Origin: Chrysomallon squamiferum | Lineage: Eukaryota; Animalia; Mollusca | Assembly: GCA_012295275.1 (NCBI GenBank) | Contig: CM022665.1 | Coordinates: 4,278,001-4,342,000 of the forward strand | Direction: 5' to 3' | DNA length: 64,000 nt | Part shown: positions 1,801 to 34,945 of the stretch, piece by piece | How positions within the stretch are numbered: the stretch's first letter is position 1 | How the letters are laid out: each line of letters begins with the position of its first letter | Position numbers and translations under genes: made by a program | Notes under the pieces: model-generated | The model's input: the letters and a program-made list of their open reading frames with translations, nothing else | Database searches by the model: none | What the model was told of the DNA's origin: nothing

Positions 1801-3309
1801 AGTAAGGGAAAAAAGATGGGTACTGGCACAAGTTTTATTCTTTTTCAGAACAGAAACAGGTTACAGATTCTTTTAAATAGGTGCACTGAATATTGGTTGA
1901 CTACTGGAATAATCAATTTTCACCTAGTTGTTTCTAAATACTTTTTTTTTTTTTTTTTTTTGTGAAATTATTGATCCACACATTGTGAAAACATCATTAT
2001 AACAATGTCATTTTCAGCATTTTAACATGCAATTAAAAACATTTCTTTAATGACTTTGTGAAGTTCATTAAAAGCATAAATCACTTTTCACAGATGTAAA
2101 AAAAATATATATTAGCACAATTTGTATTTTGTTATGCAGCTATTAACCTTTTAATACCTAAATATTCTTGCTACACATAATTCCACAAAAAGTGCTAAAA
2201 TTAAAATAACTGTCCTTAAAAAAATCACAACTTTGTCAGTGGAAATTGTTTTTAACACTTTATAAAAACTGTAATGTGTGAATAATATATAAAAATTTCT
2301 GAAAATTCTTTATTATTTCAGTTTAAACATTTCACCAAGCAAAGTCATATCAAAGCCTTGTGACAGTTTTCAACATATCTGACTTTTGCAGATGCATATA
2401 AATGCAACTTGTCACTAAGCACAAAAACGATCAATTTTTATTACAACAGATAATTTACTGCCTGGTAAAATGTCTCATCTAATGTTCAGCTGTGGAATCA
2501 ACAGTCTATTGTACGTTACTGTATGTAAAGCAACAGCTTCATATTTTGATTCTAGTTGTGTATTGATTTTAAACACAAAAGGTAAAATACTAGAGTTAAA
2601 TTATCTGTATTAACACATTAGGGGCTGCAATTATTTGTTCTGTTATATTAATGTTTCTGTTGGTGAATTTAAAATATCATAATGCTGTTCAATATCAGAT
2701 AAATAAGAACCACAAATCCATGACCAGTCCATGTCAGGAAATATCATTAGACTACAGTTATATATCATAATAAGAAATATAATAAATGTACTATGAAACA
2801 AGTACTTCCAAGAAAACTACAAGAGATAACAAAATTATATGTATGCCTCCCCCTCCAAAAATCCTTTTAAATACTTGTACATAACTACATTATTTTCTTT
2901 TGTTCTCTGTCTTTGTCTCTCTCTTTCTCTCTATTCCTTCTGTAAGTTTCAAATTCATCCAAAAGGTTTTAAATACATTTATGATAAAAAGCAATACATA
3001 TAATCTAAATACAATTTATATACCATTTTATTTGCCACTGGCAACCAGTAACTACTAAAAATAAAGTAACACTATAACATTAATAATTAATGATGATTAA
3101 ATGGATGACTAAGGTATTTAAGAACACTTGGGATAAACAGTTATTTGGTATCAAACATGTTGAATAATAATGACATAAGACAGAAAAATGTTCTGCTGCC
3201 ACTGCATGTGTTACTTTTATCACAACCATTTTGCATTCATCTTCATTCAGACATGAAAGTACAGAGCACAATATTATTCTTTGAAAATCGAACTGTACAG
3301 CACTAGTTA

Positions 3310-3381
3310 GACACTGAACAGGACTGATCCTTAAACCTGCTATACTTCAGATAAGTGATCTAACCACTAAGCTACAGCTTG
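3310..3381 (-). mobile_element. SINE head fragment (tRNA-like part)
   Basis: ggactgatcc...ctaaccactaagctaca, the reverse complement of an A-box/B-box head. Confidence 0.4.
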
Positions 3382-4577
3382 TTTCTATATATTTAGATTC
3401 AAAACTAAATGCAACCTCAGACTGTAACCAACAGACAAAATATTCCTGATGGCAGTCTCCAAAGACTAATACTGCAGAAAATATATATTTACTCTAATCA
3501 AAATTGATCACCAATAACAAAACCAGTAAATCTGTTAGTGATAATCATGAACAGACATGTCTTTATACCAACCAAAAAGGATGGTATGTTATTTTGGTCA
3601 TGTCTGTGAATTCTCACAGATAAAAATGAAAAAAAAAAAAAAAAACAAACAAACAGCAACAACAATAACAAAATTATAATAATTAAGAAAGAAGATAAGA
3701 ACATTATTTTCCTTTGGCATGTTCCTCAGATCAAACAGATACAAAAGAAAAAATATATAAAAAAGAATATACAAAATAATGCATTTTTGTCAATATCACT
3801 TCTATTAAGATCATATCTATAACTTCTGATAAATAATATATAAATTAATTTTAAAAAGTAGCTACAAATCAAAGGACATTCATCAGTATGTTTGACAAAT
3901 GAAATACAAAAAGAATGTACAAGGTCTGACACTGTAATAGTAAGCTAGACATAGATAATGGAAGAAAGGTTTATACGATCAGACTATCATTTGATGTGTC
4001 CAAGCTATACTAATCTATGTGTAGCATTGCTCTGCAACAGCAGTTGGTTCTGAGGTCACCACACCATAAACCCATCAGACTCTGGCTTGATTAATGAGAA
4101 GATGCTCTGGGGCAGTGTTTAGACATCATGCAGATGAAAGAACAGTACAGTATGGCATCATATCTTTGTCAGACAGTCAAGTTACAGAGATCAAGTAAGA
4201 TCTCTGAAGTCTGGCTGTTTGAGCAATAACGACTGTATCAGTGAATAATAAGGTGATTAATAAAGAGAGATAAAGAAGAGAAAAAGAGATAAGATTTATT
4301 GGATTCAAACAAAAGTTGACAGCATTTTTTTTAACTGATTTTCAAAGACATTATTTAAATATTTTTACGTAGAATTATTCAACCTCATTTTGTTCCACTA
4401 ACTTTTGCCATCTTTGCAGAAGCTTTATGAATCCATCCTCCAGGAACTTGGAATGTTTCTGGGTATTGAACTGGTCTAAACACTACAAACTTTTGTTCCA
4501 ACCCATTGTATTTAAAATAATAATAATATGTAATACCATGTACAAATATATATCCAGTGCTTTATAATAAATAACAA

Positions 4578-9530: not shown

Positions 9531-9571
9531 CGGGGTAAGACACATCTACACATGTTAAAACATCCAGCCAT
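9531..9571 (-). CDS. Candidate alternative first exon with a Cys-rich N-terminus: MAGCFNMCRCVLP(R)
   Basis: ATG GCT GGA TGT TTT AAC ATG TGT AGA TGT GTC TTA CCC CG|GTGGGT: 13 codons + 2 nt, good phase-2 donor, three Cys in the first 10 residues. Confidence 0.55.
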
Positions 9572-9714
9572 AGAGATTGGTTTCTGCTGTCTACCAAGTC
9601 AGTGCAGCACAGATATATTGCATAATTAAACACAATTCTCAACAAATTATGAATCGCTGTCCCATTCCCAGCCAAATGGCTTACAAGCAGACAACATGAC
9701 AAGTAGTTATTTTG

Positions 9715-9747
<33 letters not shown>

Positions 9748-10123
9748 GTAAAATAGAAATCAATAAAAATCTTTTGAATATTCAATTAGTGCATCCCCAA
9801 TTCTCTAGGTAGTTTCTACATGTTTGGCTAATATTCTGTGCTTTAAAACAATGAAACATTTTTAGTGGAAATTTTTTAATACCTATAAGGTTGATGCTGA
9901 TTGAGAAGTCACGACATAAATGAAATCCGATTCTGCACAGAGTAATAATAAAATTGTTCAAAGGCTCCACAGAACCTTATGGACTGCATGGTGAAAGTAT
10001 GAAAGTTCCAGTTGAATGATTTACTCAAGTTACTGTTCTGTGAAAAAAAGGATTTAATGGTTTGATGAATGTTATGAAACTAATGTTTACTTAATATTGA
10101 TTTAGTATTCAAGATTTATAAGA

Positions 10124-10147
10124 TGTGTGTGTGTGTGTGTGTGTGTG

Positions 10148-10186
<39 letters not shown>
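10124..10186. repeat. (GT)n microsatellite
   Basis: Direct reading. Confidence 0.95.
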
Positions 10187-10187
<1 letters not shown>

Positions 10188-10827
10188 TTACATTTGTTTG
10201 TAGAGAGAAGAGAAAAATAGAAGGAACAGAAAAACAAGACAGAGAAAAATTACTGACAAAGACTGAAACAAAGAAGAAAGGCAGAGAGAGAAAGAGTATA
10301 TATATACATATATATCAGACAGCAGAATAATAAAACACCTGATAATAATAATAATAAAAAAAATTAATTGAAAGGATGACTGTATGTTTTAAACAACACA
10401 ACCTATACAAGTCCAAAATATCAGAAAGTAAAATTGTTTTTGATAAGAAAGCAAAATAACATCTACAATTTTAACAAGAATATTTTAAAAAGGTGAATAT
10501 TAAATTTTAGTGAAGACTACAATTTGGACATAATTTTAAAATATTTTAGTAAATTAGGAATAGATGTGATATGATGTTTTTGTAACAGGTGTGTTCGTGT
10601 CTATTGACATTGATTTTCTCTCTAGTAACTTCTTAATCTATACATAAACAACATATGTTACCAGTCACGTATCAGTTTTTAAGTAGTTAATACTTGTATT
10701 ACACAAAGTAGTGCTATGTTGGAACAGATATTTAAATTATCAAAATATATAACAGATATATATGTGTTCTCTGAAAAAACAGGATATATATAAAAGAAGG
10801 TATAAAGAAATGAATGCAATATGAATA

Positions 10828-10834
<7 letters not shown>

Positions 10835-10909
<75 letters not shown>
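10835..10909. repeat. (TA)n(GA)n compound microsatellite
   Basis: Direct reading. Confidence 0.95.
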
Positions 10910-10911
<2 letters not shown>

Positions 10912-11399
10912 AATAAAGAAACAATTTATTAATATATAAATTTAAAAAAAATAATCATGAAAATAAATGAATGATTAAATAAATTTAAAAAAAAACAATG
11001 AATAAAAACAATATAAATAATAATAATAATAAAAAATAATGAACAAATAAACAAATGAATAAAAAAAAATGTAATATATATCCATTTATGTTTTCTACAT
11101 TAAATTTTGATGATCAAAGTCTTACAAAAATAGCTTCTAAGATTCTATAGATACTAAAAATATTAATTCCACTTACTGATTTACATTAAGTATTAATTAA
11201 ATTGAGTTAACATAACCGCAAAACATTATGCATGCTTCATTTAATTTTAATTATAACATTTTTTTTATAAATAAGGAAAAAATAAAATAAAATAAAAACA
11301 AGCTGATATATATATCTGAAAGAAAGGTGTACTGTGAAAATACTGCTGATAAATTTATATTTAAATCAAATGAAAAGAGAACTTAAAACCAATTGTTAT

Positions 11400-11740
11400 T
11401 GTTCTATGCTTAATTAAACAAAATAAACATTCACGAAAGAAAAAAAATGTTCATGTTTGCTTATCACATGCAAACATTCTGTCTTGTCTGAGTAATCAGA
11501 AACCTGATAATCTCTTTATTATTAGTTAAAACTGAAAAGCAATCATTATACCGTACAGGGCTTAATTTAACAAAATAAACGTTTATATGAAAGAAATGCT
11601 CATGCATGCCTATCATGAGCTTAACTTTCTGAATGTTTCATTAATAACATACCTGACAGTCTATCTATTATTTGTTAAAAGTGAAAAGCAATCATTATAA
11701 AGGCTCTCTGTGCATGATTAAGTGAAATAAACATTTATGT
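11400..11740. repeat. Diverged tandem duplication (about 150-bp unit, just over 2 copies)
   Basis: gaaaagcaatcattata at about 11534 and 11683; gcttaatt.aacaaaataaac is also repeated. Confidence 0.65.
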
Positions 11741-13231
11741 TTCATACCAGACACAATAATACAGTGCAGGAAATGTTAAAAGATAATAGAGTACGCAGTA
11801 AAACAATTATGGTCACATGGTTTTGATCAATATTTTGTTTGTGGAACTTGTAAATGGTAATGGCTGCTACAATCACTAGAATATTGATACAAATTTTTTT
11901 TTTCTTAGATAAAATAATGATTATTTTTGTCAAAAACCCAATTCTGTACAAGACAGAATTATTAGTTAAAAGTTACTGTATGTTTGTCAAAGAGATTTAA
12001 GTGAAAGATGAAGGGTAAATATTGGTTGTTGTTGTTGTTGATACTGATAATAATAAGTGTTGGGAATAAATATTGAAGAAGATGATGATAAATAATAATA
12101 GTTAATAAATGATAATTGAAAATAACAGTAGTAGTAATAATAGTGTTAGTAGTAGTATTTTCAATAGTATTAATACTAATGTTAATACAATGGTAGCAGT
12201 AGTAGTAATAACAGTAACAGCATAAGTAGCAGTAGTAGTAGTAAAAACAGCAGAGCAGCAGTAGTAGTAAATAACATATAATTTAAAAAAAAAAAATTAT
12301 ACCAATTAACCTCATGATCATCTAACATTAGTTATTTAGGCAGATACAAAACAATCAATCTGAATTTATTTAATGATAAATTATGTTTGTTAAATTTTAA
12401 ACCACTGACATTTGTTTTCAAAACAGTATTATTTGTGATTTTCCCACACGAACTGCATACAATAACATTGCATGCACTGCCCATGCAAGCACTGACTTAA
12501 ACCTAACACATAATTATCATGCAAATAATAATGTATATGCCAGTCGATAACAGAAATAATATCCATCACATCATGACCTTTGTAAATCATTAAATCTATG
12601 CAATTTGCTTCAAGTGCCTTAATATGACAAGACCAAACCAACAATCCATTAGCAATCTTCAGTACAATGACCTTAATTAGTTACCCTGCATCTACAACAA
12701 TGTGAAAATAATGATGGAAAACATGTATTTGATCAAATGAACAATACCAATATTGTTTTACGGTTATGAATAAACAGACTTTGCTCTCTGTTACAGTTAA
12801 GATGATGTTTTATGTATGATGCACGACCCTGATGTGGATCTTATAACTGACTTTAATAATAATCACTGTATAGCTGCAGTAACAGTAATGATGAATGATT
12901 TATTTATTTATTTTTTTTGTTTTTTTTCGTTTGAGCTTTACTAATAATGGCAATAATAATAAATAATAATTATTATGTATTTGCAGTAACAGCAATAATG
13001 AATGTTGTTTGTTTATTTTTATTTAGTTTTTAGCTTTGTTTGTAACAACATCAATTATACATATATTGTGCCTCTGAATAACATAAATAATATATAGTTA
13101 ATAGTAGTGATAATAACAATAATTTTATTGTAGTCCAGGAACAATGGTTATTTTGTAGGTTCAGTACCAAAAACAAGAAATATTTTGTGATTTCATTTGT
13201 AACAGCAAATATTTTTAGGTTTGGGTAATAA

Positions 13232-13267
<36 letters not shown>

Positions 13268-13649
13268 AATTAAGAATAATTAATTTGTAATTTCAATAAT
13301 AATAATAATAACAATAACAATAACACTACTACTTCTAATAATAAAATTATAAGCTTATACAGGAAAACAGCTGTTTTGCAAGGTTACAATTTATTTATGT
13401 ATTTTATATATTTTAGGAAATACCATGTAATCCATTCAAAACATGAGAAAAATGTTCAGGTTTCAAAGAACAGGATTATCAAAACTGAATTAAATATTTA
13501 AAACTAAATCTAAATTTACTTGAATGACATTTAAAAATAATTCTCTCAGCATTTAATTCAGTCATAAAACATTAACTGTAAAATCGTTTGAATTACCTAA
13601 GTAAACTTCGAGCATAAAGACTAAAAGAAGTTGATGTGAATGTAACAAT

Positions 13650-14171
13650 TGACACCACATAAATAACCCCCACTGCATTAACTACTGATACCACATAAAT
13701 AACCAATACCAAATAAATAACCAATACCACATTAACAGCCAACACCACATAAATAACCAATACCACAGACAACCAGTACTACATAAACAACCCATTAAAG
13801 TCCCAACTACTGAACCAGAACAAAATAAAACATCCAACTCTTATATCAGTTCCTCCAGAATAAAATATAGATCAAACCTGAACTCCTAATACAATCATCA
13901 ATTTAATATAATACATTAAAAGCAAGACTAAATTAAAAAAAAAGAAAAAGCAATACAACCTGGTGACACCATAAACAACTCACTGAAGTCCTATCTACTG
14001 AACCAGAACAAAATAAAGCATACAACTCTGATATAATTACTCAGAGACAAAAATAGAAATCAAACCCTAACATGTAACAATGTAATTAATCTAGTATAAT
14101 ACATTGAAATAGAAGAAAAAAAAAGTGTCTTTTAAAAAAAAATAATATAGAAATACTAATACAACCTGGTG
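13650..14171. repeat. 18-bp minisatellite (accacataaataaccaat) followed by a tandem duplication of about 190 bp
   Basis: Minisatellite units at 13650-13790. Copies at 13783-13965 and 13971-14171 share ctactgaaccagaacaaaataaa and aatacaacctggtg. Confidence 0.7.
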
Positions 14172-14176
14172 GCCAT
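14166..14176 (-). CDS. Candidate alternative first exon MAT(R/S), or the end of a 12/15-nt microexon
   Basis: agcATG GCC ACC AG|GTTGTA, phase 2, at the downstream end of a local CpG-retaining patch (14180-14720). The donor is weak. Confidence 0.35.
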
Positions 14177-14720
14177 GCTGCTAACGCAAAGTAAATCTAT
14201 GATCTGAAGTGAACAATAGCATCTGACAAACACAACTGAAGTGTCAGCCTGCCGCTACTGGACCAAGTGGGAGAAGGAAAAATATAAAGCGTTAAGTCCA
14301 GGCACTTTGTGGGAAATCCGTGCTAAGGCAGCAATGGACAAGAAGTTAATGTTTCTTTACAAGCAACGAAATTGTTTTTATACCATTAAGCAGATCAATA
14401 GTATTGGCAGTACAGTTGTGTTGGTGAAAAAGGGTGTACGTATGTTTAAGGAGAAAAAGGTAAAAATAATAAAAGACACACACACATACATATATATATA
14501 AATATAGATTTGGTTGAAGGTCTTGCAGTGTTTGGTAAAAGTTCGTGTAAAAAGCTCATCGTGACATGGTTTTCATTGGAATCGATCCAGCCTGACAGAA
14601 TAGTGTGTTGTGTTGTGTTGTTGTGTGTTCATGTTGCCTGAATTATTGTTTCTCAAGCTGCTAGATAGTGATGTTTTCAGCCTCCTTTGTAACAAATCAA
14701 TGAGGAGTCGATGAATGATG
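14177..14720 (-). promoter_or_regulatory. Intragenic CpG-retaining patch, candidate internal promoter / 5' UTR
   Basis: About ten CpGs in about 550 nt within otherwise CpG-poor DNA, directly upstream of ATG GCC ACC AG|GT. Confidence 0.4.
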
Positions 14721-16769
14721 TGTAAAGACAGTATTAAAATGTAGATTGTTTTTGTTTTTGTTTTTAAAATCAACTGTCAATAGAATTTTTAATATGTATT
14801 TTTTAAAGAAATAACAACAGCAACAACAACAATACTAAGCACAATATGTAACATTATACATTCAATACATAAATAACAAAGTTGTCTTTTCTTCTGTATT
14901 GAGATTATTGATCAAAACTGATAAAACTGATCAAAGCTGACCTATAGATAAAAAAAAAAAAAAACAACACATTTATACAGACACTGGTTTTCTGTTGGAA
15001 ATTAATATCATGCTAAGTATACATAATTAAATCTATCTACTATACTAGTAATGGAAATCACAACTGTGTTGTAACTGGAAACCTTAAAATGGTCTTCTTT
15101 TCATTTTTATTTATTTTTAATACTGCAATGAAAAGTCAGCAGAGTCTTTCATCTCCTTTTATTATAAATATTGAAGTGAAAAGTCAAATGATAATACATA
15201 TTACTATACCTGGGTAGAACAAAGAATCCGTGCTGGATGAAATCCCAGTGGACAAAACCCTTGCTGTGAGATATCCATGGATAAAAACCCTTATTGGACT
15301 TAACCCCCATGAGACAAGATATAAATAGATAAAACCAAGTCAAGTTTCCCTGAACAGATTTTTTGCCACATATAACCCATGCATTTAAAGAACCAAGAAC
15401 AAAAAAATATATTATCTTTATTTTCATGCAATATATTTTGAAGGTATTTTTCAGATTCTTTTAAAAAACATTTCAGATATTTAACTGTTTCTTCATCCAG
15501 CACAATGACGATTATGTATTTTAATTATCTGTCACATCAAACAAACCCACAATAAATAATACTGTTCTCCCTTCCCTCCAAGAAAACCCCATACATACAT
15601 TTAAAAATTGCTTTTGCCTCTCTAAACATACAGAATATTAAACTATATTGCTACATTCTAATCTATAATTATGTTGTACAGAATATAAATAAATTCATAC
15701 ACCATCAATATTTACAAATGTATGTATAAGCAATTTTGCTTGACCCTGTATTAAAAATACTGCCAATCACTTTGTTTTTCAAAAGAAATATAATATTTTC
15801 ACAAATCCATATTGAGTGACAGATAAAAATGAAAAGTGTGTACATATTAATTACCTGCCTGTTGTACCTGGCCATTTTTACTTAACCATTAAAAATCTGT
15901 CATCTTTTGTTATCTGATATTGTCATAAAGCAGTTTTTTATGTTTTAATGCTGCAAAAGGTTAATCAAATTAAACAAACAAAAAATGAATCAAAGTAACA
16001 AATTTGTGTTATATAGTTTTCTAAAAAAAAAAAGAAATTAAAATGAAATCATTTATAAGATCTGCTGGGAAAGAGAAAAACAGTTTTTATAGTTTTGAAA
16101 GCTAAAATCTTCAAATGCAGAATACAAATTCTATCAAGTTCAGCTATTTTGATAACAGATACAGACTTTGTTATGAAAAAGTATATTTTATCATTGTTGT
16201 TATTATTATTATTATTGTTACTACTACTATTATTACTACCATGTTTACAATTATATTATTATTAATGTTATTGTAACTGTTAAAACAATGTTAAACACAT
16301 GAACAGAAGCCTGTTTTTTAAATCTTTTTTGTTTAAGGTTAAATTACTATCTGCTAAAATGGAAGGTCAAAAATAAACAAAACATTTAAAAAAAAAGAAC
16401 ACTCTGAAATAAAAGAAGCAAAAAGAAAAGAAAAAAGAAGTGTGAACGACAATAAAATAAAGGATTAAAAGTATGAAATATCAAATAGGGAGCCACGAAA
16501 TATGAACTGTCTGAACAATGACTGATTAATTATTTATATTTAATAGATTAAAATCTGAGTGGTAAAAGTCCATTGAAATACATCACTATATATGAATGAA
16601 TGAATTTGAATGTATTATACTCAATGAGGATGCAAACAACAAACATTTATGATATATGATGACTCTGAATTGATAAACTTTTGGTAATTTAATAAAAAAA
16701 AAAAAAATATACAGTAACTAACAATTTAATGCATAGAATAAACATATATTTTTATTTTTTTTTTTATTA

Positions 16770-17470
16770 TATTTGCAGGTAATTACAAAAATTTTATAGA
16801 ACAATAAATAATAACTATGGTTAGTGTGTTTGTAAATTTTTAAAAATAATTTAATATTAACTTTCAAATGATACAAGAATAAATAAGATTTTTACATTAT
16901 TAACATACCTTTGGCAATTTATTATTATTTACCAAAACAATAAGTATCAACACAATGAATATAATCTTTTTCCTTCTTTTTTTTTTGTTTTGGTAATTTA
17001 ATATTACAGCATAATAACAAACATTCTGAAACAATTTTTTTATGATAACGGTATTTATGATAATATACAATATCTATTAATATTAAATAACAAAATGAGA
17101 CATAACAACTTTGAATTAATGCAATCTATTTTTTAAATTTATTATTAATTCCAAAATGATGCATGGTTATTATGATCTCATATTTTTTGTAATTTAATAT
17201 TATCAGTTATAAAATGATGTATAGTAATTATGATAAATACATTTTTAGTAATTTGATATTCATTATTAAACAATATACAATATCAATGATATACAAAATC
17301 AGCATACATTTTGTAATTTAACATTAATTAGAAAACAATACAGGATAACCATGATGAACATAAGTTTTTGTAATGAAATTATAAAACAACTGCACAACAA
17401 TATACAATAATTATGATCAGTACAGTTTTGGAAATTTAATATTTTTATAAAACAATATAAAATGAAAAAC
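16770..17470. repeat. Degenerate AT-rich minisatellite (about 55-60-bp unit)
   Basis: Recurrent tttt(g)gtaatttaatatt...aaacaatatacaataattatgat. Confidence 0.55.
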
Positions 17471-17505
17471 AAAAAAATAAATTTATTTAAAATTAAACAT
17501 TTTAC

Positions 17506-17552
17506 CTGTAATCCCTAATAGATTCACCAACATCGTTAAATTTTTCTGCCAT
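17506..17552 (-). CDS. Candidate alternative first exon (no TM): MAEKFNDVGESIRDY(R/S)
   Basis: ccaaaATGGCA...GAT TAC AG|GTAAAA: strong Kozak context, 15 open codons + 2 nt, phase-2 donor matching the TM exon. It is preceded by about 250 nt of non-repetitive, GC-richer sequence (UTR-like). Confidence 0.5.
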
Positions 17553-18691
17553 TTTGGAAGGCCAGAAGAATGAATTAGACTCAAAAGATTTACACTTGCT
17601 GTGTTGTCAAATGGAGGAATGCTGATATGTACTATTTCATTACTTAACCTGTCAGGTGTTAGTGTTATTTGGATGGAGACTGTTAACAAGCAAAATACTG
17701 ATAATGGGATTCGAGGGTCATGTCCTGGAATATCCATATTAATTAAATGTGTTAAACCTTTCTGGTGTCATGTTACAAAAATAATCTGAAGGGATGGGTT
17801 GTCAGCTGCAAAACAGTGTAAAGGTTATAAAAAACAAACTTTCAAATAATGAAAATGGTTACATTAAGAGATAAGTTTAGGTAACTTTTTTTGCCAAGAT
17901 TAATGGTTTAAAAAAAAATTGATTTTTTTTTCTTCAGTTTTTTTCCAAAACTGAAATGATTAAGATCTTCATAAACAAAACCATTCAATACTTATACCAA
18001 ATCAGAAATCATTAAAATGTCATCTCTATATGAGTTATTATAATACACAAATGCTGTCATACGTTTGATTTTTTTTTAATTATTATTTTAAGTACGGATC
18101 ATGTTCCTCAACAGGTTACTCATGGCAGAGTGGCTTATATATAGCATACACTGGGTGATTTTATTAGTATCTTTCAATATCTTTCTGATTTATAAGCATG
18201 GAATTCGATGCTCAAAGGAACAACATGGCATCTCTCCTGTAATTTTATCTCTTTTATTATTCCATTAAAAATAAGTATAGATATTAATAATCAGAAGGTT
18301 ATATAACTATGTCTGGATCTAACCCAATAATTTAGGTTCATAAGTAGAATCCTAACTGCTCACATGGTTAAATTTATCATTCCGTCTTTAATTTTTCTAT
18401 ATCTTACTTTATTATTTTGATGTTTACATACAGGTCTTAATTCTAGACAGGCTGTGCACGACATGCATCCCATAATTTTGTCAGCTTCTCCCCTGAGGTC
18501 ATTTAGTTAATTATGGCATTTGACCGTTAAATTAGTCACCATTATACCTTAGGAGTTTGATTTCTACATACAGATCTTTACCTTAGAGAAAATGTTCTTG
18601 GAATCTTTTCACTAATTTTGTTAATTTCTTACCATGTCAGTTGGATGTTTTAAATGCAGAACATGATGTAATAATTGTTTTAGTTTCTCAC

Positions 18692-18983
18692 CTGATTATT
18701 TTGCGGGTCTTCACAGGAGATCCTGCTCTTCTAACTGAAGCAGGTGATGACCCAACTGATGATCGTGAATCATCAAATGATCTTTTCTGTAAATGCTGGA
18801 TGTTACCGCCAAGTTCTTCATCAACTGACCCAACCCTCTTGTAGCTTTTAGTGATGACTTCTTCATCTTCTTCTTTCTTCCTCTTGAAACACCAGCTACA
18901 CAAGACAGTGCCAAGGACCAGACCAATGATGGCTCCACATGATCCAACAATAACCAACACTACCTGACCTGTTTCTTCCATAC
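18692..18983 (-). CDS. SYT7: Exon 2 of a synaptotagmin-like type III membrane protein (Syt7-like): short luminal segment, TM helix, juxtamembrane Cys and basic cluster, Ser-rich linker
   Basis: Acceptor tttacAG|GT ATG (18985-18984) and donor ATC AG|GTGAGA (18691, phase 2); the ORF-track stop lies inside the intron. It encodes GMEETGQVVLVIVGSCGAIIGLVLGTVLCSWCFKRKKEEDEE...KTRKII(R/S). TM + LCxWC + basic residues is typical of synaptotagmins. From memory it resembles vertebrate Syt7 (LCHWCQRK; short phase-1 first exon) and fly Syt7 (EDEE..SY). The exon itself is well supported; the Syt7 assignment is moderate because no C2 domain is visible. Confidence 0.8.
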
Positions 18984-19026
18984 CTGTAAATATTAAAAGG
19001 AAATTTAATATAAATCTGTATCTATA

Positions 19027-19027
<1 letters not shown>

Positions 19028-19068
<41 letters not shown>

Positions 19069-19127
19069 ATATATATATATATATATTAAATGAAATTTAT
19101 ATCTATCTTTTTGAAGTCAATAATACA

Positions 19128-21479: not shown

Positions 21480-21600
21480 TGAGAAAAACCCATGGAAGGA
21501 TGTGTCTTGAATGGGAAATAACCAAATAAGCATACTGTGTAGGACTGATCCTGAACTCAGTCATCCCTAACCTCTGCAATATAACCACCCAACTGCAGCT
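21480..21600 (-). mobile_element. SINE fragment
   Basis: catggaag...gaatgggaaataaccaaat...aggactgatcc...taaccacc. Confidence 0.4.
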
Positions 21601-23194
21601 GGGGCAATTTTCCATGTACAAAAATCACAAGTATGATACATAATAACTTTTAATATAAAATATTTTGACCTGTAATTAAGATTCATTCATTAATTACCAC
21701 ATAAAAGAACTATAAGTATTTTAAAATTATTATCTTGGGATCAAATTTTGTGGCACAAAAGATCCTAGACATTCATTTCCACAGCAACAAAACCAATCTA
21801 TTTTTACAGGTAAGAGTTGTGAGTAAAGCATTACAGGTGTTTAATTAACAACAAACAATGCATTATTAAACAACAAAAAGAATTACTAGCTCTGTTTTTA
21901 ACTTGAACATAGTTACAAAGAGACAGAGAGGTGAAATCAATTATTCTACCAGTTATGAAGGTTCATCATCATTTCAGCATGAAAATAGTTGTCGTAATAG
22001 ATTCTGGAAAGTTTTCTGACAAAAAAACTGAAACAAAGTCTGATTAAGAAACCACACGTCTGAGAAATACAAGGGAAAAAAATTGAAAAAAGAAAATTCA
22101 AGACAAAACACAGTCTCAAAACCCTATCAATAAACCTGATTTGTGGGCCACTGTTGTGAATTTCATTTCATTTGAGGTAAATTCTCTTTTCTTTCTTAAA
22201 GTAAATTACAACCTAAAAGTAAAACTAAGACCAGAAAGAGAAAGAGAAAAAAATATATTAATAAGAAAATATGTTCCTGAAGTTAAATGCAGAATGTGAT
22301 AATTTGAAACAAAATAACTTTTTTTATTTACAAAATGGTCTCAGAACTTTTATTCTGACTGCTTTTAACAACATTAACATAATTTGTAGAATGTTTTTGC
22401 AAAATAAATTGTCAGATAAAAAAAAAAAAGAGATAAAAAAAGAAATTCATAAACCCAAAACACACAAATTTTAAAACATAAAAAAACCTAAAAAACCCCA
22501 AACCCAAACATAACTAATAAAAATAGTCCTGAGAAAAAAGAAAAAAACCCACAACAAAACAATAACAAAGAACCCCATCAAAACAAACAAACAAAAAATA
22601 ATACTGACACCTCCCCATCAAAAAACCCTAAATAAACAAAACTGCAACATTACAATGCAAATACTAAAACATAATTTCAAAATTTATCTTGTTTAAATTT
22701 TGATGGATGGGGTAGAAACTATTCTGTGACATATAAAACATTTCTCTCTGTTTTCTGTAATACAGTTTGATCAAAATAAATTCTTCACCACAAATACTCC
22801 TGAGTAATAAACAGAATACTAAATCAGCTACCTTTTGAAAACAAGTTTATGTCTCTCTTGAAACCATTTTCATCAGTCACCAGTGACATATAAAAATAAA
22901 TGTATTGTGTATTTAAATTTATACAAATAGGAAACTTATTTATTTATTTTCATGTCTATTTTTTATTTAAAATTTTTGATCATTAAAGTTGGTATTATTA
23001 TTATTATTATTATTATTATTTGATATTATTTTTTTTTAATTATTATTTTTTTTAATTAATTAATTTTTTTTTGTGAGGATGGAGAATACAATATATATTC
23101 TTATGGAAAATAGATATTCTTGACATTTGCTATTAGCCATTCTCTACTCTATCACTTCTACCATTTGACAACTCAAACATTTTTGAATTCAACT

Positions 23195-23245: not shown

Positions 23246-24685
23246 AAAGAAGCCACTTTCAGTTTTAATTTTTGAATATTATTTTTCTTCTAAAAATGCT
23301 TTAAGGTTTCATTATTTCGAAAAAACAAATTTCAAGCAATGTATATATTCTAAATAATGCAACAATTTTGACTTCTGATAGTTAATAATTATACAAATAA
23401 ATGCTGTGCTGATAGAATATAGCCTACAGTGAGAGCATTCAAGAGGGTAGGTGGCTTGTTTTATTTTTTGTACAACATAAGAACAAAATAGCTGGAATCT
23501 ATGTGATGTGAATAACAAGGAATGGTCAGTCCCTGCAGCTGGTTATTTTTTGTTGATGATTTTGGCATTTTTAGACAGAATAATAATAATAATAATAATA
23601 AAGGTAACAACAACAACAACAAAAACAGTATAAGTAGTAGCTTAAGCAGCGAAAGTAGTTATTACTATTATTATTGGTAGTAGCTGCTATAGTTATTATA
23701 AGAGTAATATGCGTAATGGTCAAGGTTAGAATGGTGATGATGAGGATGAAGGTCATTATTGTGGTGGTAACAATAGTGTTATTATTATGACTAATCACTG
23801 TGATTTGTTTGACATTGAGGATGATAATGATAATGATGATGATTACAACACTAATAATATTAATTAAATAAATAAAAAAGAAATAATATGTTCAGTTGTA
23901 ACTGTTTTGACACAAAGTTGAATAAATCCCTAGTCTGAACTCAGAAAAGACTTATGACATTATGTACAACAAATAAATAAATAAATAATATAAAGAAACT
24001 TATAAATTATACAGGAATGAAATTATGGTGTCTCATAGTGTCGAAGTGTGACTTAATTAAACTTAGCATTAAGAGAATTCAGTGGCTGTTTCCAATTATG
24101 TCAATTAACAAGTGAGGCCTGAAACTCATTTCATGCACAAATTAGAAACCTGAATAATGGAAAGCAACATGGATGGCTTCACTGCAATGTTCAACAGTAC
24201 CATAACAATGAACAAAACTATAAATGAAACATGCAGCTTTTAGCAATTCAATACATTTCTTATTAAAACAAATTATCAAAGCTGTGGCTTTTCATATATA
24301 TACATATATATAAATATATGAAAGCCAAAACAAGATAATTGTAACATAAATCAATTGTATTTTGAAAAAGCTGTTAAACAAAGGAATGTGGGATATATAG
24401 AATATTGTATATCTCTGTATACATGTGCCGTTATTAACACAAGTTAAGCATGAATATTACTGGCTGTTGTTGTATTGATACTGTGAGAGCTTTCAATAAA
24501 AACAATTTATCTGCTTATTAAAATCATTTGCAATACATATATATATATTTTACAGGTGTCAGTTTTATGTATATCTGAAAACAACATATTACATTTATTT
24601 CATTAAATATATTTTATGAAATAAAACGTTATCAGTAGATGTATGTGTATTTTTGTGAATTTATTACATACATTAAACTATTAAG

Positions 24686-24972
24686 CTGAAACTCAGTGAT
24701 TAGATCACAGGACTGAGTTGTGATATACCATAGGATCTATCCTCTGTGGTGTTCCTTTTTGGCTAATTCCCATTCCAACCAGTGCCCTTTAAATGAATGA
24801 TCAATGATCATGGTATCTCTTATTCAACTGAAAAGAAAGTGTATAACAAAAAATGCCATCTTAACTGATAAGAAGAGCCTATGGGAAAGAACTGTGGGTT
24901 TCTTTCCTCATGTCACTGATTCTCAGAAACATTTATATGAAAATGTGTTGAAATGTTGTGAAACAAATTTAA
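24686..24972 (+). mobile_element. Degenerate tRNA-derived SINE, near full length
   Basis: A-box-like actcagtgattag, B-box-like ggatctatcc, body ttcccattccaaccagtgc...gggtttctttcctc, tail aaaatgtgttgaaatg. Homologous blocks recur across the window on both strands. Confidence 0.6.
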
Positions 24973-27050: not shown

Positions 27051-27630
27051 CTGGCTTAGAATGAAATGAGATAAGGTCAGCTGATGCATAATAACAGTAA
27101 CACTACTGGACATTTGCTATCATTAACTCACAAAAGCATTAATAAAATGAGACCACTGTAACTGGTGAGAATATCACTGTAACCTGGATCAAATAATTAA
27201 TTTCAGTCATTGAAAATAAAGCCAAATTTGTTAATTATTCAGTTATTGTCAGCTCTTGTGAGAAAGTGTAATTAATAGTCAATTTTGCCAACACATTTAA
27301 TGTTTAATTACTGGGAACTCTAAATGACCTTGGTTGTGGTGTGAGATTATACTCTGCATTGACATTTAATGACGCACGTTTACATCATCATTATTCAAGG
27401 TCTACAGATAAATATTTTCATTACCATGGGGTTCAGTGGTTATCCTAATTCAAATTATCTCAAGCTAATTTGGGAGAATTAATTATATGGCAATGAGCCA
27501 AGAGTTAGTTCTTTGAGTCTAGTAATGCTAGACTTTGTACCCATGGCAGGCATACTTAGACACAGGTAACTTGTTTGCTTTTAATATATCTAAAAAGCTT
27601 ACTGAGAAATCAGTAATAATAAGAACTATT

Positions 27631-29420: not shown

Positions 29421-32400
29421 AAGATGCAAAATATAACACTGCAGTGTAAATCTTTGACTATGTGTATTAGTAAGAAAATAAAACAGTAATAAAAATCCAG
29501 TAATTAATAGTTTTAGTGATGTAAATATCTGAACAGTTTAATTGTTGCCGTCTGTTTATTTCACGGGCTTGAGTAGTATTTTGTGATATTTTATAAAACT
29601 GAAATCTCTCATTTTTATTATCAGCAACATCAAAATTAAATCAAACAAGCAATTTTTGTCAAACTGACATATTCTTGCTCCATTTTCCATTGATCAATAA
29701 CCAATCAAAGAGGTGACTGGAATGTTAACCCTGACTAAAAATCTGAATTTATAAAAAATAATAATAATGAAAATATTATCCAGACATCAATATTTCCAGT
29801 TATCAAGTAATGGTTGCTCATACAAAAGAAGTTCCTCAATGTTAATGTTAAAGATATTTAGTGGAGTCTAGGGACATGGCTCAAATCACCACAGCAGTAT
29901 ATCCTGTCTGTATCAGATAATCTAAGCAGTATTACTACATGACAATTACATGTAACAAATGAACTATTAATACTGAAGTAACCTATCTGATCTGAAACAA
30001 GATATCAGTTTCACAGGTCTGTCCCAAGGATCAGACGTTATTGTCACAATGTTCACTGAAATTATTTTTTTGTTTGATGTACATTTAAAAATAGTTTAGT
30101 GATGGCAGAATTTGTTCAATATTTTTTAAAGTAAAATAATATTCTCATTGTCATTGTTGTTATTATTGTTGCTGTTTTAAATTTAATTTTTATTGTTCTT
30201 CATTGTATTTTTTCAGTTTTGATATTGCATATGACATCTAAGTGTTAAAAGTTAGAGCAAATTTAAAGTTGTTTTTCTTTGTTTAATTAATTTGTGAAAT
30301 ATTGTCTGAATGTATAAATGCTCATGTGTTTATATAAAACAGACAACAATATGTCAGGCAAAATTCATGTGATCATTTCTTGCCCAACAATTTAGGACAA
30401 TACTTATTTATGGACTCACTCTTACTAGGTAGTTTGTTCCCACAACATTCAAATGTCATTTACATTGTTAATAATGTTATTATTCTGTACTTCACAAACT
30501 ACAATAAAAATATTTTTATTTTTTAATAGTTTAATTTACTTTCTTGTTACTACTACGTATAACTAAAAGTATTAATTTTAGGTATAAAATATTTAGACAA
30601 AACAATTCTTAAAGACATCAAACATACTTGTACAAAAAAGAAAAAGAACAAGAAGAACAAAAAAGAAGCTATATATAATAATAAGGTAATTTAGATAAAT
30701 GAATCAAAAATGTATTTTGTTTTCCTAAACAAATAAAATAAATGTTTGTAGGCTCAGTCTGTTAAATATATTTTACTAAAGAAAACAAAAAAGAAGACAA
30801 AATTTCATTTAATCTTTTTCATTTCCATCTTAAAATATCTGCTGGTTCCATTGATTACTAAAACAAATTATTAATGTTATTTGCCACGATTATCTTAATA
30901 TACAATCAATGGCAAAACTATTTAATAAGACTGATATAAAATTAAATACAAGTAGCAAAAGCAATAGTAAAAACAGCAGCAAAAAACAAAACAAAGAAAA
31001 ATTATGGAGTTACTTCCCTTTGAACCTGATGGTCTAATTCTGGTGATCACGAAGGACATGTAAAATATTTATCAGTTCCATTGATTGCAGTAATGAAATA
31101 GTCTGCTTTTTCACTACAACACTACTTAGAAGTACTCATTAGACTTAAATTATTGAAGCCAGAGTTAATTTTGGTTACAAGTAAACATAGATGTAATTAC
31201 AAAAACTTCCTCAAAACAAAACTCTAACAATACATTATTTATCCGTTCTTTTCAAATTTATTACCTTGTGAAAACTGACTGTTTTATCTCTGGATTTTGT
31301 TATTTTGTAATAAAATATTTCTTAGAAATCCATTAACAAGGATCAATAGACAATTTTTAAGAGATCTAGAAAATGCAGACGGTTCTGATTTTCTAAAAAT
31401 AACATTAACCTTTCTTCCACATAAACTTAAAAATTGTCGGCTGAATTTATAAAACCTCATTTGGACAAATACTGAATTTGTAAATTAAATTTTATGTCTT
31501 TAAACTTGCATTAAGTCAGTTAAATCAGTTAATTTAAAAATCATCATCAAAATAAACACAACTTTCACAATGGATTACTTACATGTTGATCTGTTAGTGC
31601 CAATGATAGCTGTAAAGATAATCTTTTTAGAACTGAAATATAATCATGTAACTTGGAAAGAATGAAAATCTTAAGACAGCAAACTGATTTTACATTATGA
31701 ATTTTAAAAATTTTGTTTTCACTAACTATAATGTCATGAACAACAACAATACTTAATATATAAACAAACAAACAAACAAACAAAGAAAAGAAAAAAAAGA
31801 AAGAAAGAAATGAACTAGTTAAAAAATATATACATATGTGTGTGTGTGTGTGTGTGTGTATGTGTGTTTAAAGTAAATAATTTGTTATTGATAAATACAG
31901 TATCCCCAGAGATACTGATGACCTTACACTAACCATGTATTTGTTAACAGGCAAAAATTTAACAGCAAGCTGTACGTTCAATATAAACATGTCATTTAAC
32001 ATAATAAAATGGCTCAAATGCTATATGACATCTGATGTCTTGTTTGCCATGTATGTTGCTTTTATAGTAATACTTGAGGTACATAGTTGTTCTTGAATGT
32101 TTCTAAGTGTTTGATGTAGTTTAGAATGGATCTACAGCAGTCTGTATTAATTCACCTTTATTATTATTAATTTATTTTATTTAGTTTTTTTTTTAAATGT
32201 GGCACTTTTTAATAATGATTATTGTTGTTGTTTTTGTTATTATTATTCCAAAACCAATATATTCTTTTATTTAAATCCAATGTACATCTGAAGATATTAA
32301 AAATACACAACACTCCAGAGCATGTTTAAGTATATTATGATACAGCTTTTGCCCCCAGCCTACCTATAGCAAGACACTGAGTTCATCAGCATTAAAATAA

Positions 32401-32684
32401 TCTTACCATGTTTAACATGTAAACAGAACACTTGAACAGGATTCTACAGACACAAGCAGACTGGCTATTCTGAGGCTCAGACTTTACCAAAGATAGAAGA
32501 CTTCAGACTCTTTATCATCAGGCATTATGACATTAACAGGGTTTTGATGCATGTATAAATGGCATTCAAGTCTGCTGGTTTAACACTATGTTACGAAATG
32601 GTATCAGAAGTGTTTGTTTCTGACTTATGCTTTCTAGGTTTATAATTATTTTTGTTATTGTTAATATGGAACATGTAGATATTA

Positions 32685-33500
32685 GTTATCTCAGGTCATC
32701 TAGTCATCACAGGTCATTTACACACTGTATTTTATTAACATAGGTCACCTAGACATTACAGCTATTGTTACTGGACATCTAAATGTAACAGTTATGATCA
32801 TAGATCATTTAGACATTAGATTTTAATATCACAGGTCTTATTTCATTACAAGTTTTATTTCAATACAAGGCTTCCAAAAAATTCTTGTTTTATACAAGTC
32901 TTATTTCATTGCAATTCATATTTCATATTTCATTACTAGTTTTGTTTCATTACAGATGTTATTTCAATATAAATTTCAGTACAATTTTGGTTCAGTACAA
33001 GTCTTATTTCAATACAATTTTTATATCATTACACATCTTATTTCTCTAGAAAACTTGTTTGTTTTGTTTCAGTTCAAGTCTTATTTCAGTACAAATCTTA
33101 CTTCACTAGAAATCTTATTTCAGTACATTACAATCATTATCATAGGTCATTTACACATTACATTTGTTATCACTGGCCATCAAAGCATCAGTCATTATCA
33201 TAGGTCATCTATATATTACAGTTATTATCATAGATCAGTTAGACATTATAATTATTATCACAGGTCATCTAGACCTTACATTTATTATCACAGATCATCT
33301 AGACATTACAGTTATTACCTTATGTCATCTAGTCGCTACAGCTATTATTAACGGTCATCTAGCTATTATACTTATCATTGTAGGCTATTGATATAATTAT
33401 TGTAATCTACATTATAACAGAAATCTATGTATTACTGTGTCATGGACCATCTAGGCATTATTATAATTATTATAAGCCATTTAGATATTATATACATTAC
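32685..33500. repeat. 30-bp minisatellite (ttattatcacaggtcatctagacattacag) interrupted at 32838-33127 by a block of a 17-bp minisatellite
   Basis: 30-mer units are visible on both sides of the inserted ttatttcagtacaagtc block. Confidence 0.8.
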
Positions 33501-34448: not shown

Positions 34449-34454
34449 TTTGCT

Positions 34455-34945
34455 GTTGTAATGAAAGAGTTTGTATTTAAACAATACTTCTAATGAAAGA
34501 AAATTTCTATTAAAATAAAATTTGTACTGAAATAAGATTTCTAGTGAATTAAAATGTGTACTGAAATAAAACTTGAACTGAAACAAAATGTGCACTGAAA
34601 CAAGTCTTCTAGTGAAATAAGATGTGTAATGAAATAAAAATTGCATTGAACCAAAACTGTACTGAAATTTATATTGAAATAACTTCTGTATTGAAACAAA
34701 ACTAGTAATGAATTATGAAATATGAATTTCACTGAAATAAGACTTGTATGAAATAAGACTTGTATTGAAATAAAAATTGTACTGAAATAAGACTTATAAT
34801 GAAATAAGAATTGTATTGAAATAAGAACTGTATTGAAATAACACTTGTATTGAAATAAGAATAGTATTGACATAACACTTGTAATGAAATAAAAAATGTA
34901 CTGAAATAAGACATTGAAAACAACTGTACTGAAACAAGATTATAC
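34455..34945. repeat. 17-bp minisatellite (gacttgtattgaaataa), inverted relative to 32838-33127
   Basis: Clear 17-bp periodicity; its reverse complement is collinear with the block at 32838-33127. Confidence 0.8.

Follow-up and report, generated by a model that had tools for sequence, protein, structure and literature searches.

A synaptotagmin-7 gene of Chrysomallon squamiferum with a transmembrane exon, one RNA-supported short start and two further likely ones

Variants without a transmembrane (TM) helix have been reported for many synaptotagmins, and invertebrate Syt13 has two N-terminal coding exons that are alternatives to each other (PMC2823689; papers given by PMC number are cited throughout for those parts of them that were covered). 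We analysed a stretch of 64,000 nucleotides (nt) from the gastropod Chrysomallon squamiferum (GenBank assembly GCA_012295275.1, contig CM022665.1, positions 4,278,001 to 4,342,000), here called the window, which carries on its minus strand the 5′ part of a synaptotagmin-7 (Syt7) gene: a TM exon and, downstream of it, three short patches that open with ATG. As in the systems of PMC2823689, one gene here gives TM and TM-less forms. The TM-less variant 2 of Drosophila Syt7 differs in starting at a Met just before the C2A domain, for Lottia Syt7 the listing gives a TM form only, and the covered parts of that paper describe neither a multi-start array nor a Cys-rich replacement anchor for Syt7 (PMC2823689). 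A sequence-only reading of the window had proposed that one gene makes integral-membrane, lipid-anchored and soluble versions of the same protein from an array of alternative first exons. The idea is not as novel as that reading implied, TM-less synaptotagmin variants from alternative N-terminal exons having already been described (PMC2823689). For mollusc Syt7, our literature search, outside which most subscription papers lay, found no paper on a first-exon array; judging from protein sequences, the arrangement is already present in automated abalone, clam and oyster models. We show the feature to be real for one of the three short exons and consider it likely for the others.

RNA junctions of the transmembrane exon and of a short alternative exon

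The TM exon (18692..18983, minus strand) has its acceptor at 18983 and an ATG at 18981, followed by a TM helix, the motif C-x-W-C and a phase-2 donor at 18692. Its coding patch (18981-18692) is 290 nt long and ends CAG^GTGAGA, where ^ marks the exon end. A protein search with this exon gave 2 hits among 195 candidates; identity to the synaptotagmin-7-like protein of Gigantopelta aegis is 86% over 96 of 96 amino acids, and that to Haliotis asinina is 53%. The maximal 19-residue hydropathy of 2.48 indicates one N-terminal TM helix, which is accompanied by juxtamembrane Cys, and residues L21, C28, W30 and C31 are invariant in all seven aligned mollusc sequences. The best solved-structure match of the Gigantopelta protein (P0001) is Syt7 (E 1.6e-116, against 1.3e-86 for Syt1), and in this orthologue from another species the acidic residues that bind Ca2+ in Syt7 are retained (nine Asp and one Glu), as judged by eye in the alignment. 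The Lottia Syt7 has the same linker start as the orthologues (PMC2823689), and RNA from the TM exon runs into that linker start. These sequence comparisons support a gastropod Syt7, whose C2A/C2B pair would be like that of P0001. They thereby bear out, and narrow down, the synaptotagmin identity proposed from the sequence alone.

Five runs match some of 17400-19100, and four of them were compared over 17400-19010: X1, X2 and X3, which are RNA runs of one study, and X5. The comparison used assembled contigs, which cannot show transcription start or level, in which a gap does not equal absence, and whose depth is a poor measure by which exons cannot be ranked. X5 gave only pieces of 19-32 letters, which are short chance matches and uninformative. 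In X1 as in X2 there are two contigs of 57 letters in which 30 letters equal 17506-17535 and the next 27 letters are unlike the window. The consensus of these 27 loose letters at donor 17506 is identical with the one formed at the TM donor 18692 by two loose ends in X1. The agreement within the consensus is 0.63, which implies two different continuations. One of them is the linker exon, which, read by hand, accounts for 15 of the 27 consensus letters; the X3 contig of the TM exon runs on into a frame that matches the linker start of the orthologues and whose first letter, A, completes Arg (frame read by hand). The remaining 12 letters fit, by hand, the micro-exon of Gigantopelta X1 versus X2. 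It begins with C, as read by hand from the loose ends and in agreement with the same Gigantopelta pair, and so completes Ser. Since linker and micro-exon make up the same loose consensus at both donors, 17506 and 18692 use the same two acceptors, and it is virtually certain that donor 17506 is used in RNA. Thus the TM-less alternative exon at 17506 is spliced to the acceptors of the TM exon in X1 and X2 contigs, and the proposal of one shared phase-2 acceptor completing Arg is right about sharing and phase but wrong about number and residue, as there are two acceptors and the micro-exon gives Ser.

The 17506 junction contigs have depths of 91.5 and 207.4 in X1 and of 22.4 and 6.7 in X2, and the body of the TM exon has 58.2 (X1), 8.8 (X2) and 47.8 (X3). 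The pattern of X3 against X1 and X2 is only a hint of sample-specific use of the 17506 exon. In X2 this exon is covered by a contig of depth 21.2 spanning 17506-17690 and by one of depth 2.2 spanning 17675-17860; the former stops at 17690 with no loose end among the matches listed. These contig ends fit first-exon status, and the 17506 exon is probably a first exon starting near 17690.

The TM exon, which had been read as a first exon as well, is not one. It is spliced at both ends in X1 and X3, and in X2 its 5′ end is among the matches listed; in all three RNA runs the loose end at 18984 leads to an upstream exon ending at 29780. The match of this loose end to 29781-29810 is exact (0 of 100 shuffles). 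Upstream of the TM exon these contigs extend by 170, 198 and 327 letters, and downstream of it the X3 contig extends by 1845. An in-frame stop directly before the 29780/18983 joint, read by hand, means that translation of the TM form starts at 18981. The TM exon is thus the second exon and the first coding one, and the upstream exon, of which the 3′ end was mapped as far as 29810 (29780..29810, minus strand), is non-coding.

Two side observations concern the introns. The intron between these exons (29779-18984, minus strand), spliced in all three RNA runs, begins with AT (TGG^ATAATATT) and ends with AG. The minor-class donor consensus has an ATCC core, which this intron lacks; it is either a non-canonical AT-AG intron or has one wrong or variant base at 29779. 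At 18050-18721, X1 and X3 contigs of low depth (2.8-9.8) continue without splicing into the intron that follows the TM exon and represent pre-mRNA, intron retention or DNA.

The short patches and the chance background

All four minus-strand patches lie where the sequence-only reading had placed them and end in phase 2, each length leaving 2 on division by 3, and the three short ones begin with ATGG. The RNA-supported exon (17506..17690) contains the patch 17552-17506, 47 nt that end CAG^GTAAAA and encode 15 codons, MAEKFNDVGESIRDY. In its peptide, positions 1, 5, 8, 12 and 15 are hydrophobic and the net charge is -2. The hydrophobic moment of 0.60 (p=0.0006 versus shuffles) is the strongest of 22 peptides tested, and only one other, a Ruditapes start, has helical periodicity at p<0.05 (0.017). 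The 17552 start may accordingly be an amphipathic helix and not a bare soluble start, which qualifies the soluble versions that had been proposed, the RNA-supported peptide being the one predicted to be amphipathic.

A candidate Cys-rich TM-less first coding exon (9531..9571, minus strand) consists of 41 nt, ends CCG^GTGGGT and encodes MAGCFNMCRCVLP, with 3 Cys within 13 residues. It is indicated by its sequence, by the drop in G+C at its donor and by its likeness to clam starts. If donor 9531 is used, S-acylation of this start is somewhat to be expected by analogy, because of the likeness to Syt17 and to the clam starts. Myristoylation needs Gly at position 2; the 9571 peptide has none there, so that this modification is not expected.

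The remaining candidate TM-less exon (14166..14254, minus strand) has its ATG at 14176 and only the codons MAT before the phase-2 donor (patch 14176-14166, 11 nt, CAG^GTTGTA). It is indicated by sequence, by the drop in G+C and by analogy with homologues, and is the least certain of the short exons: it may either be a first exon or lie internally, with an acceptor at 14257 or 14254. From 14254 on, 29 codons can be read without a stop, and 3 of them encode Cys.

Further observations were made around this patch. A 23-codon ATG frame with 2 Cys at 15278-15210 (minus strand) ends at a phase-0 donor (CAG^GTATAG; rank 7 of 52 by the drop in G+C) and could pair with a phase-0 frame entering the acceptor-like site at 14254; it has an 11-letter word in common with 14315-14325 (two or more matches in 5 of 100 shuffles). 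The 14166 donor has a copy in phase 1 at 13960, which belongs to a degenerate tandem duplication at 13782-14171 (72% over some 200 letters). In a self-comparison around the patches, matches were confined to low-complexity sequence and to a degenerate copy, close by near 13965, of the region holding the 14166 donor.

The window is about 28% G+C with many simple repeats. We counted the bare pattern, defined as ATGG...[AC]G^GT in phase 2 within at most 60 nt. Control sequence of 109 kb contains 15 matches (10 on the plus strand and 5 on the minus strand above 18692), and the 18.7 kb downstream of the TM exon contain 6, where about 2.6 would be expected by hand calculation; phases 0 and 1 give 2 matches each in the same 18.7 kb. 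A fourth phase-2 match within the coordinates of the sequence-only reading (15875-15868, MA) has no exon-like drop in G+C and was set aside. By the drop in G+C across the donor, the three named patches rank 2, 3 and 4 (0.19-0.23) of 52 ATGG-donor candidates taken from all phases and both strands, in a test that is partly circular because the patches had been picked as non-repetitive and the measure is not independent of that choice. Donors 9531 (rank 2) and 14166 (rank 3) both reach 0.233, the RNA-supported donors 0.193 and 0.153, and a drop of at least 0.17 occurs at 1.7% of 351 [AC]G^GT sites.

The match at 4670-4631 was set aside for its wrong phase (phase 1). The one at 21615-21572 (minus strand, phase 2, upstream of the TM exon, MENCPSCSWVVILQ) resembles the oyster-type Cys start of P0111 and P0122, agreeing with P0111 in 6 of 7 residues; it overlaps a dispersed repeat, has no drop in G+C and is probably due to chance. 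This repeat occurs in three degenerate copies (3290-3390; 21532-21602, minus strand; 24682-24777, plus strand; E 0.0017 and 0.006 with a query picked by eye) and by eye resembles the head of a tRNA-derived short interspersed element (SINE). The largest drop of the 52 belongs to 27543-27565 on the plus strand (MAGILRH, CAG^GTAACT), which is either a chance match or the first exon of an antisense gene. Long spurious open reading frames at 32680-33380 and 34450-34940 arise from repeats, tandem as well as inverted, that are degenerate (at most 82%, over 304 letters). A bacterial promoter scan stayed at chance levels, its model being bacterial and not applicable to an animal.

TM-less starts in other molluscs

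The linker start is present in 96 stored homologues of at least 340 amino acids, 71 with a TM segment and 25 without; 24 of these 25 have a distinct short start, and the one beginning at an internal Met was dropped. The cluster members among the matches listed were 15 of 21 for Haliotis and 15 of 153 for the Magallana cluster. Short TM-less starts occur in at least 11 of 20 mollusc species, namely three Haliotis, Mya, Ruditapes, Mercenaria, Dreissena, two Saccostrea and two Crassostrea, with five different starts in Ruditapes, four in Mya and two in Haliotis. Automated RefSeq models generally rest on RNA evidence. The Haliotis starts are MAECL and the three-residue MAF (the latter in Haliotis cracherodii models), and an oyster start is MAWSCINTGTS. 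Cys-cluster starts with the motif C-G/A-C-F/L-D-W are found in the four clams (Mya, Ruditapes, Mercenaria and Dreissena), and P0111 and P0122 have another Cys-rich start. In Haliotis, Mya, Ruditapes, Mercenaria, Saccostrea and Crassostrea the short start meets the micro-exon or the linker start at a phase-2 joint, as it does here; because of this phase, the joint residue alternates between R and S, or K and N, with the presence of the micro-exon. The array of short TM-less starts that had been proposed is thus borne out at 17506 by RNA and has an annotated counterpart in abalones, clams and oysters, in some with Cys clusters.

The arrangement can be seen in the Syt7-like models of Haliotis (for example XP_046363348.1 and XP_071112324.1), of Mya arenaria (XP_052808855.1 to XP_052808858.1) and of Ruditapes philippinarum (XP_060565038.1 to XP_060565044.1), for whose TM-less isoforms no functional description was found. 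These models differ from the gene in the window in their peptides; they are automated, and the arrangement is read from the protein models. When the 1511 ATG-to-GT peptides of the window are scored against six Cys-rich Syt7 starts of clams, that of 9571 comes 14th, and several of those ahead of it are microsatellite translations. This likeness is suggestive and too short to prove orthology. Against the Haliotis starts, window peptides rank 20 and 247 of 1511, which is uninformative. Searching 50% representatives yielded 11 hits, of which 10 were examined; the window peptides occurred in none of these.

The luminal extension before the TM exon also varies in Haliotis, Patella and oyster models (P0002, P0013, P0014, P0019, P0021, P0024, P0025, P0048, P0050 and P0053), as a second set of alternative starts; in P0048, a Crassostrea virginica model, a C-G-C-R-D-W-I-C start stands ahead of the TM exon.

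Weighing the readings and comparison with known systems

We consider it probable that the window holds the 5′ part of a gastropod Syt7 gene in which the exon at 17552-17506 is spliced to the two acceptors of the TM exon and 14176 and 9571 are likely to be further starts. Taken singly, donor 9531 is probably used, and for donor 14166 use is slightly favoured. Several points weigh against this reading. The bare pattern alone is weak, being mildly enriched at about twofold over chance, and donors 14166 and 9531, whose sequences (AG^GTTGTA and CG^GTGGGT) are weak, rest on the drop in G+C and on homologues, both lying outside the RNA-compared 17400-19010. The RNA support comes from one study and from contigs only; X3 has a contig of the TM exon and none on the 17506 exon, which says nothing about absence, and the body of the 17506 exon is absent among the X1 matches listed. 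No stored homologue N-terminus is clearly orthologous to any of the three window peptides. In 9 of the 20 species no TM-less isoform was found among the members listed (Gigantopelta, Haliotis asinina, two Patella, Littorina, Babylonia, Pomacea, Ostrea and Crassostrea angulata), and for Gigantopelta, the closest relative, both models are TM forms. Acceptor-like tracts with 15-17 pyrimidines of 20 lie upstream of 14176 at 14322, 14257 and 14254, and another acceptor-like site at about 17805 makes an internal-exon reading possible for the 17506 exon. Searches of the window with 14 homologues (tblastn) and motif scans found the TM exon only and no C2 exons, and the letters of the linker exon are absent from it too; micro-exon, linker and C2 exons must therefore lie past its left end.

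It might be that only the 17506 exon is real and that 14176 and 9571 are chance ATG-to-GT matches in a conserved or more G+C-rich intron. At the control rate about 1.3 such matches would be expected in 9.2 kb (by hand), a match without exon signature does occur at 15875, the top candidate by the drop in G+C (27543-27565) lies on the opposite strand, and the stored homologues offer no clear orthologous peptide for either patch, the RNA comparison spanning 17400-19010. The two donors nevertheless have drops in G+C at least as large as those of the RNA-supported ones, their strand (sense), intron and phase are those to be expected, and related molluscs have two to five such starts, including three-codon and Cys-rich ones. 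We regard this explanation as unlikely. Less probable still is a splicing choice, in which the short exons would be internal, mutually exclusive and fed by one upstream non-coding exon, so that the anchor is chosen by skipping of the TM exon and not by promoter. TM-exon skipping in synaptotagmins has been the subject of older work. An upstream non-coding exon ending at 29780 exists here, and the acceptor-like sites near 14176, with the open Cys-containing frame behind 14254, and the one near 17805 would suit such exons. The protein outcome would be much the same, except that the 14176 patch could encode a longer, Cys-containing start. Yet the main X2 contig of the 17506 exon stops at 17690, and the low-depth contig of that run crosses 17805 unspliced. 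Very improbable, finally, is that the TM-less transcripts come from leaky internal promoters and have no function as anchor variants. Start peptides do vary widely among mollusc groups, and non-palmitoylated mouse SYT7 is unstable (PMC8452306); against this, the 17506 junction contigs in X1 are not faint beside the TM exon body, poor measure as depth is, Mya, Ruditapes, Mercenaria and Dreissena all retain C-G/A-C-F/L-D-W starts, and the helical periodicity of the 17552 peptide is non-random.

With alternative starts as the preferred reading, an upstream promoter would drive transcripts running from the non-coding exon through the TM exon to the linker, an order seen in contigs, and putative promoters within the intron that follows the TM exon would start others at the short exons. 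Since the ATG frames of these exons end in phase 2, each can be spliced in frame either to the micro-exon, which is optional, or to the linker exon, as seen for 17506 and expected for 14166 and 9531. All forms would share the linker and, judging from orthologues, a Ca2+-binding C2A/C2B pair, and the N-terminus would set the attachment: integral in the membrane, by TM helix and juxtamembrane Cys, for the TM form; peripheral and S-acylated, by prediction, for the 9571 form; a predicted amphipathic acidic helix with weak membrane or protein contact for the 17552 form; and no anchor for the MAT form from 14176.

The location of SYT7 decides its function (PMC8452306). One C2AB sensor with three or four natural anchors would be a ready-made series for relating anchor to localisation and release kinetics, and molluscs, with their large identified neurons, are suited to such anchor tests. 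The gene may also show how invertebrates, which are reported to be without Doc2 genes (PMC2823689), obtain a soluble high-affinity sensor. As synaptotagmin variants lacking a TM helix are known and automated annotations already contain the mollusc isoforms, the finding has a moderate effect.

Described systems resemble the predicted forms in different ways. In rat, Syt7 has at least 12 splice variants, some without C2 domains (PMC5987875), and TM-less or myristoylated Syt1 transgenes fail to support fast release (PMC8164606). Doc2 is a TM-less tandem-C2 protein, cytosolic and recruited by Ca2+, from a separate gene (PMC5987875). Syt17 (B/K), like the predicted 9571 form, is a tandem-C2 protein without a TM helix that binds membranes via acylated N-terminal Cys (PMC6684635); it differs in being a separate gene with seven Cys and no Ca2+ binding, whereas the 9571 peptide has three Cys and the orthologue P0001 keeps the Ca2+ ligands. 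Mouse SYT7 is cleaved within its TM segment by gamma-secretase and then depends on palmitoylation; in neurons it is peripheral and palmitoylated, and its retargeting alters which release functions are rescued (PMC8452306). The cleaved protein is, like the predicted 9571 form, a C2AB sensor held on the membrane via palmitoylated Cys without an intact TM helix, but it arises by proteolysis of the TM form (PMC8452306), while here a separate exon would provide the start with no TM precursor. We tentatively raise the possibility, doubtful as it is, that exons in molluscs provide what in mammals is brought about by proteolysis: through tissue-specific starts, one Syt7 gene would give TM, palmitoyl-anchored and amphipathic or soluble, Doc2-like sensors in animals that lack Doc2 genes, a TM-less one dominating in some tissues.

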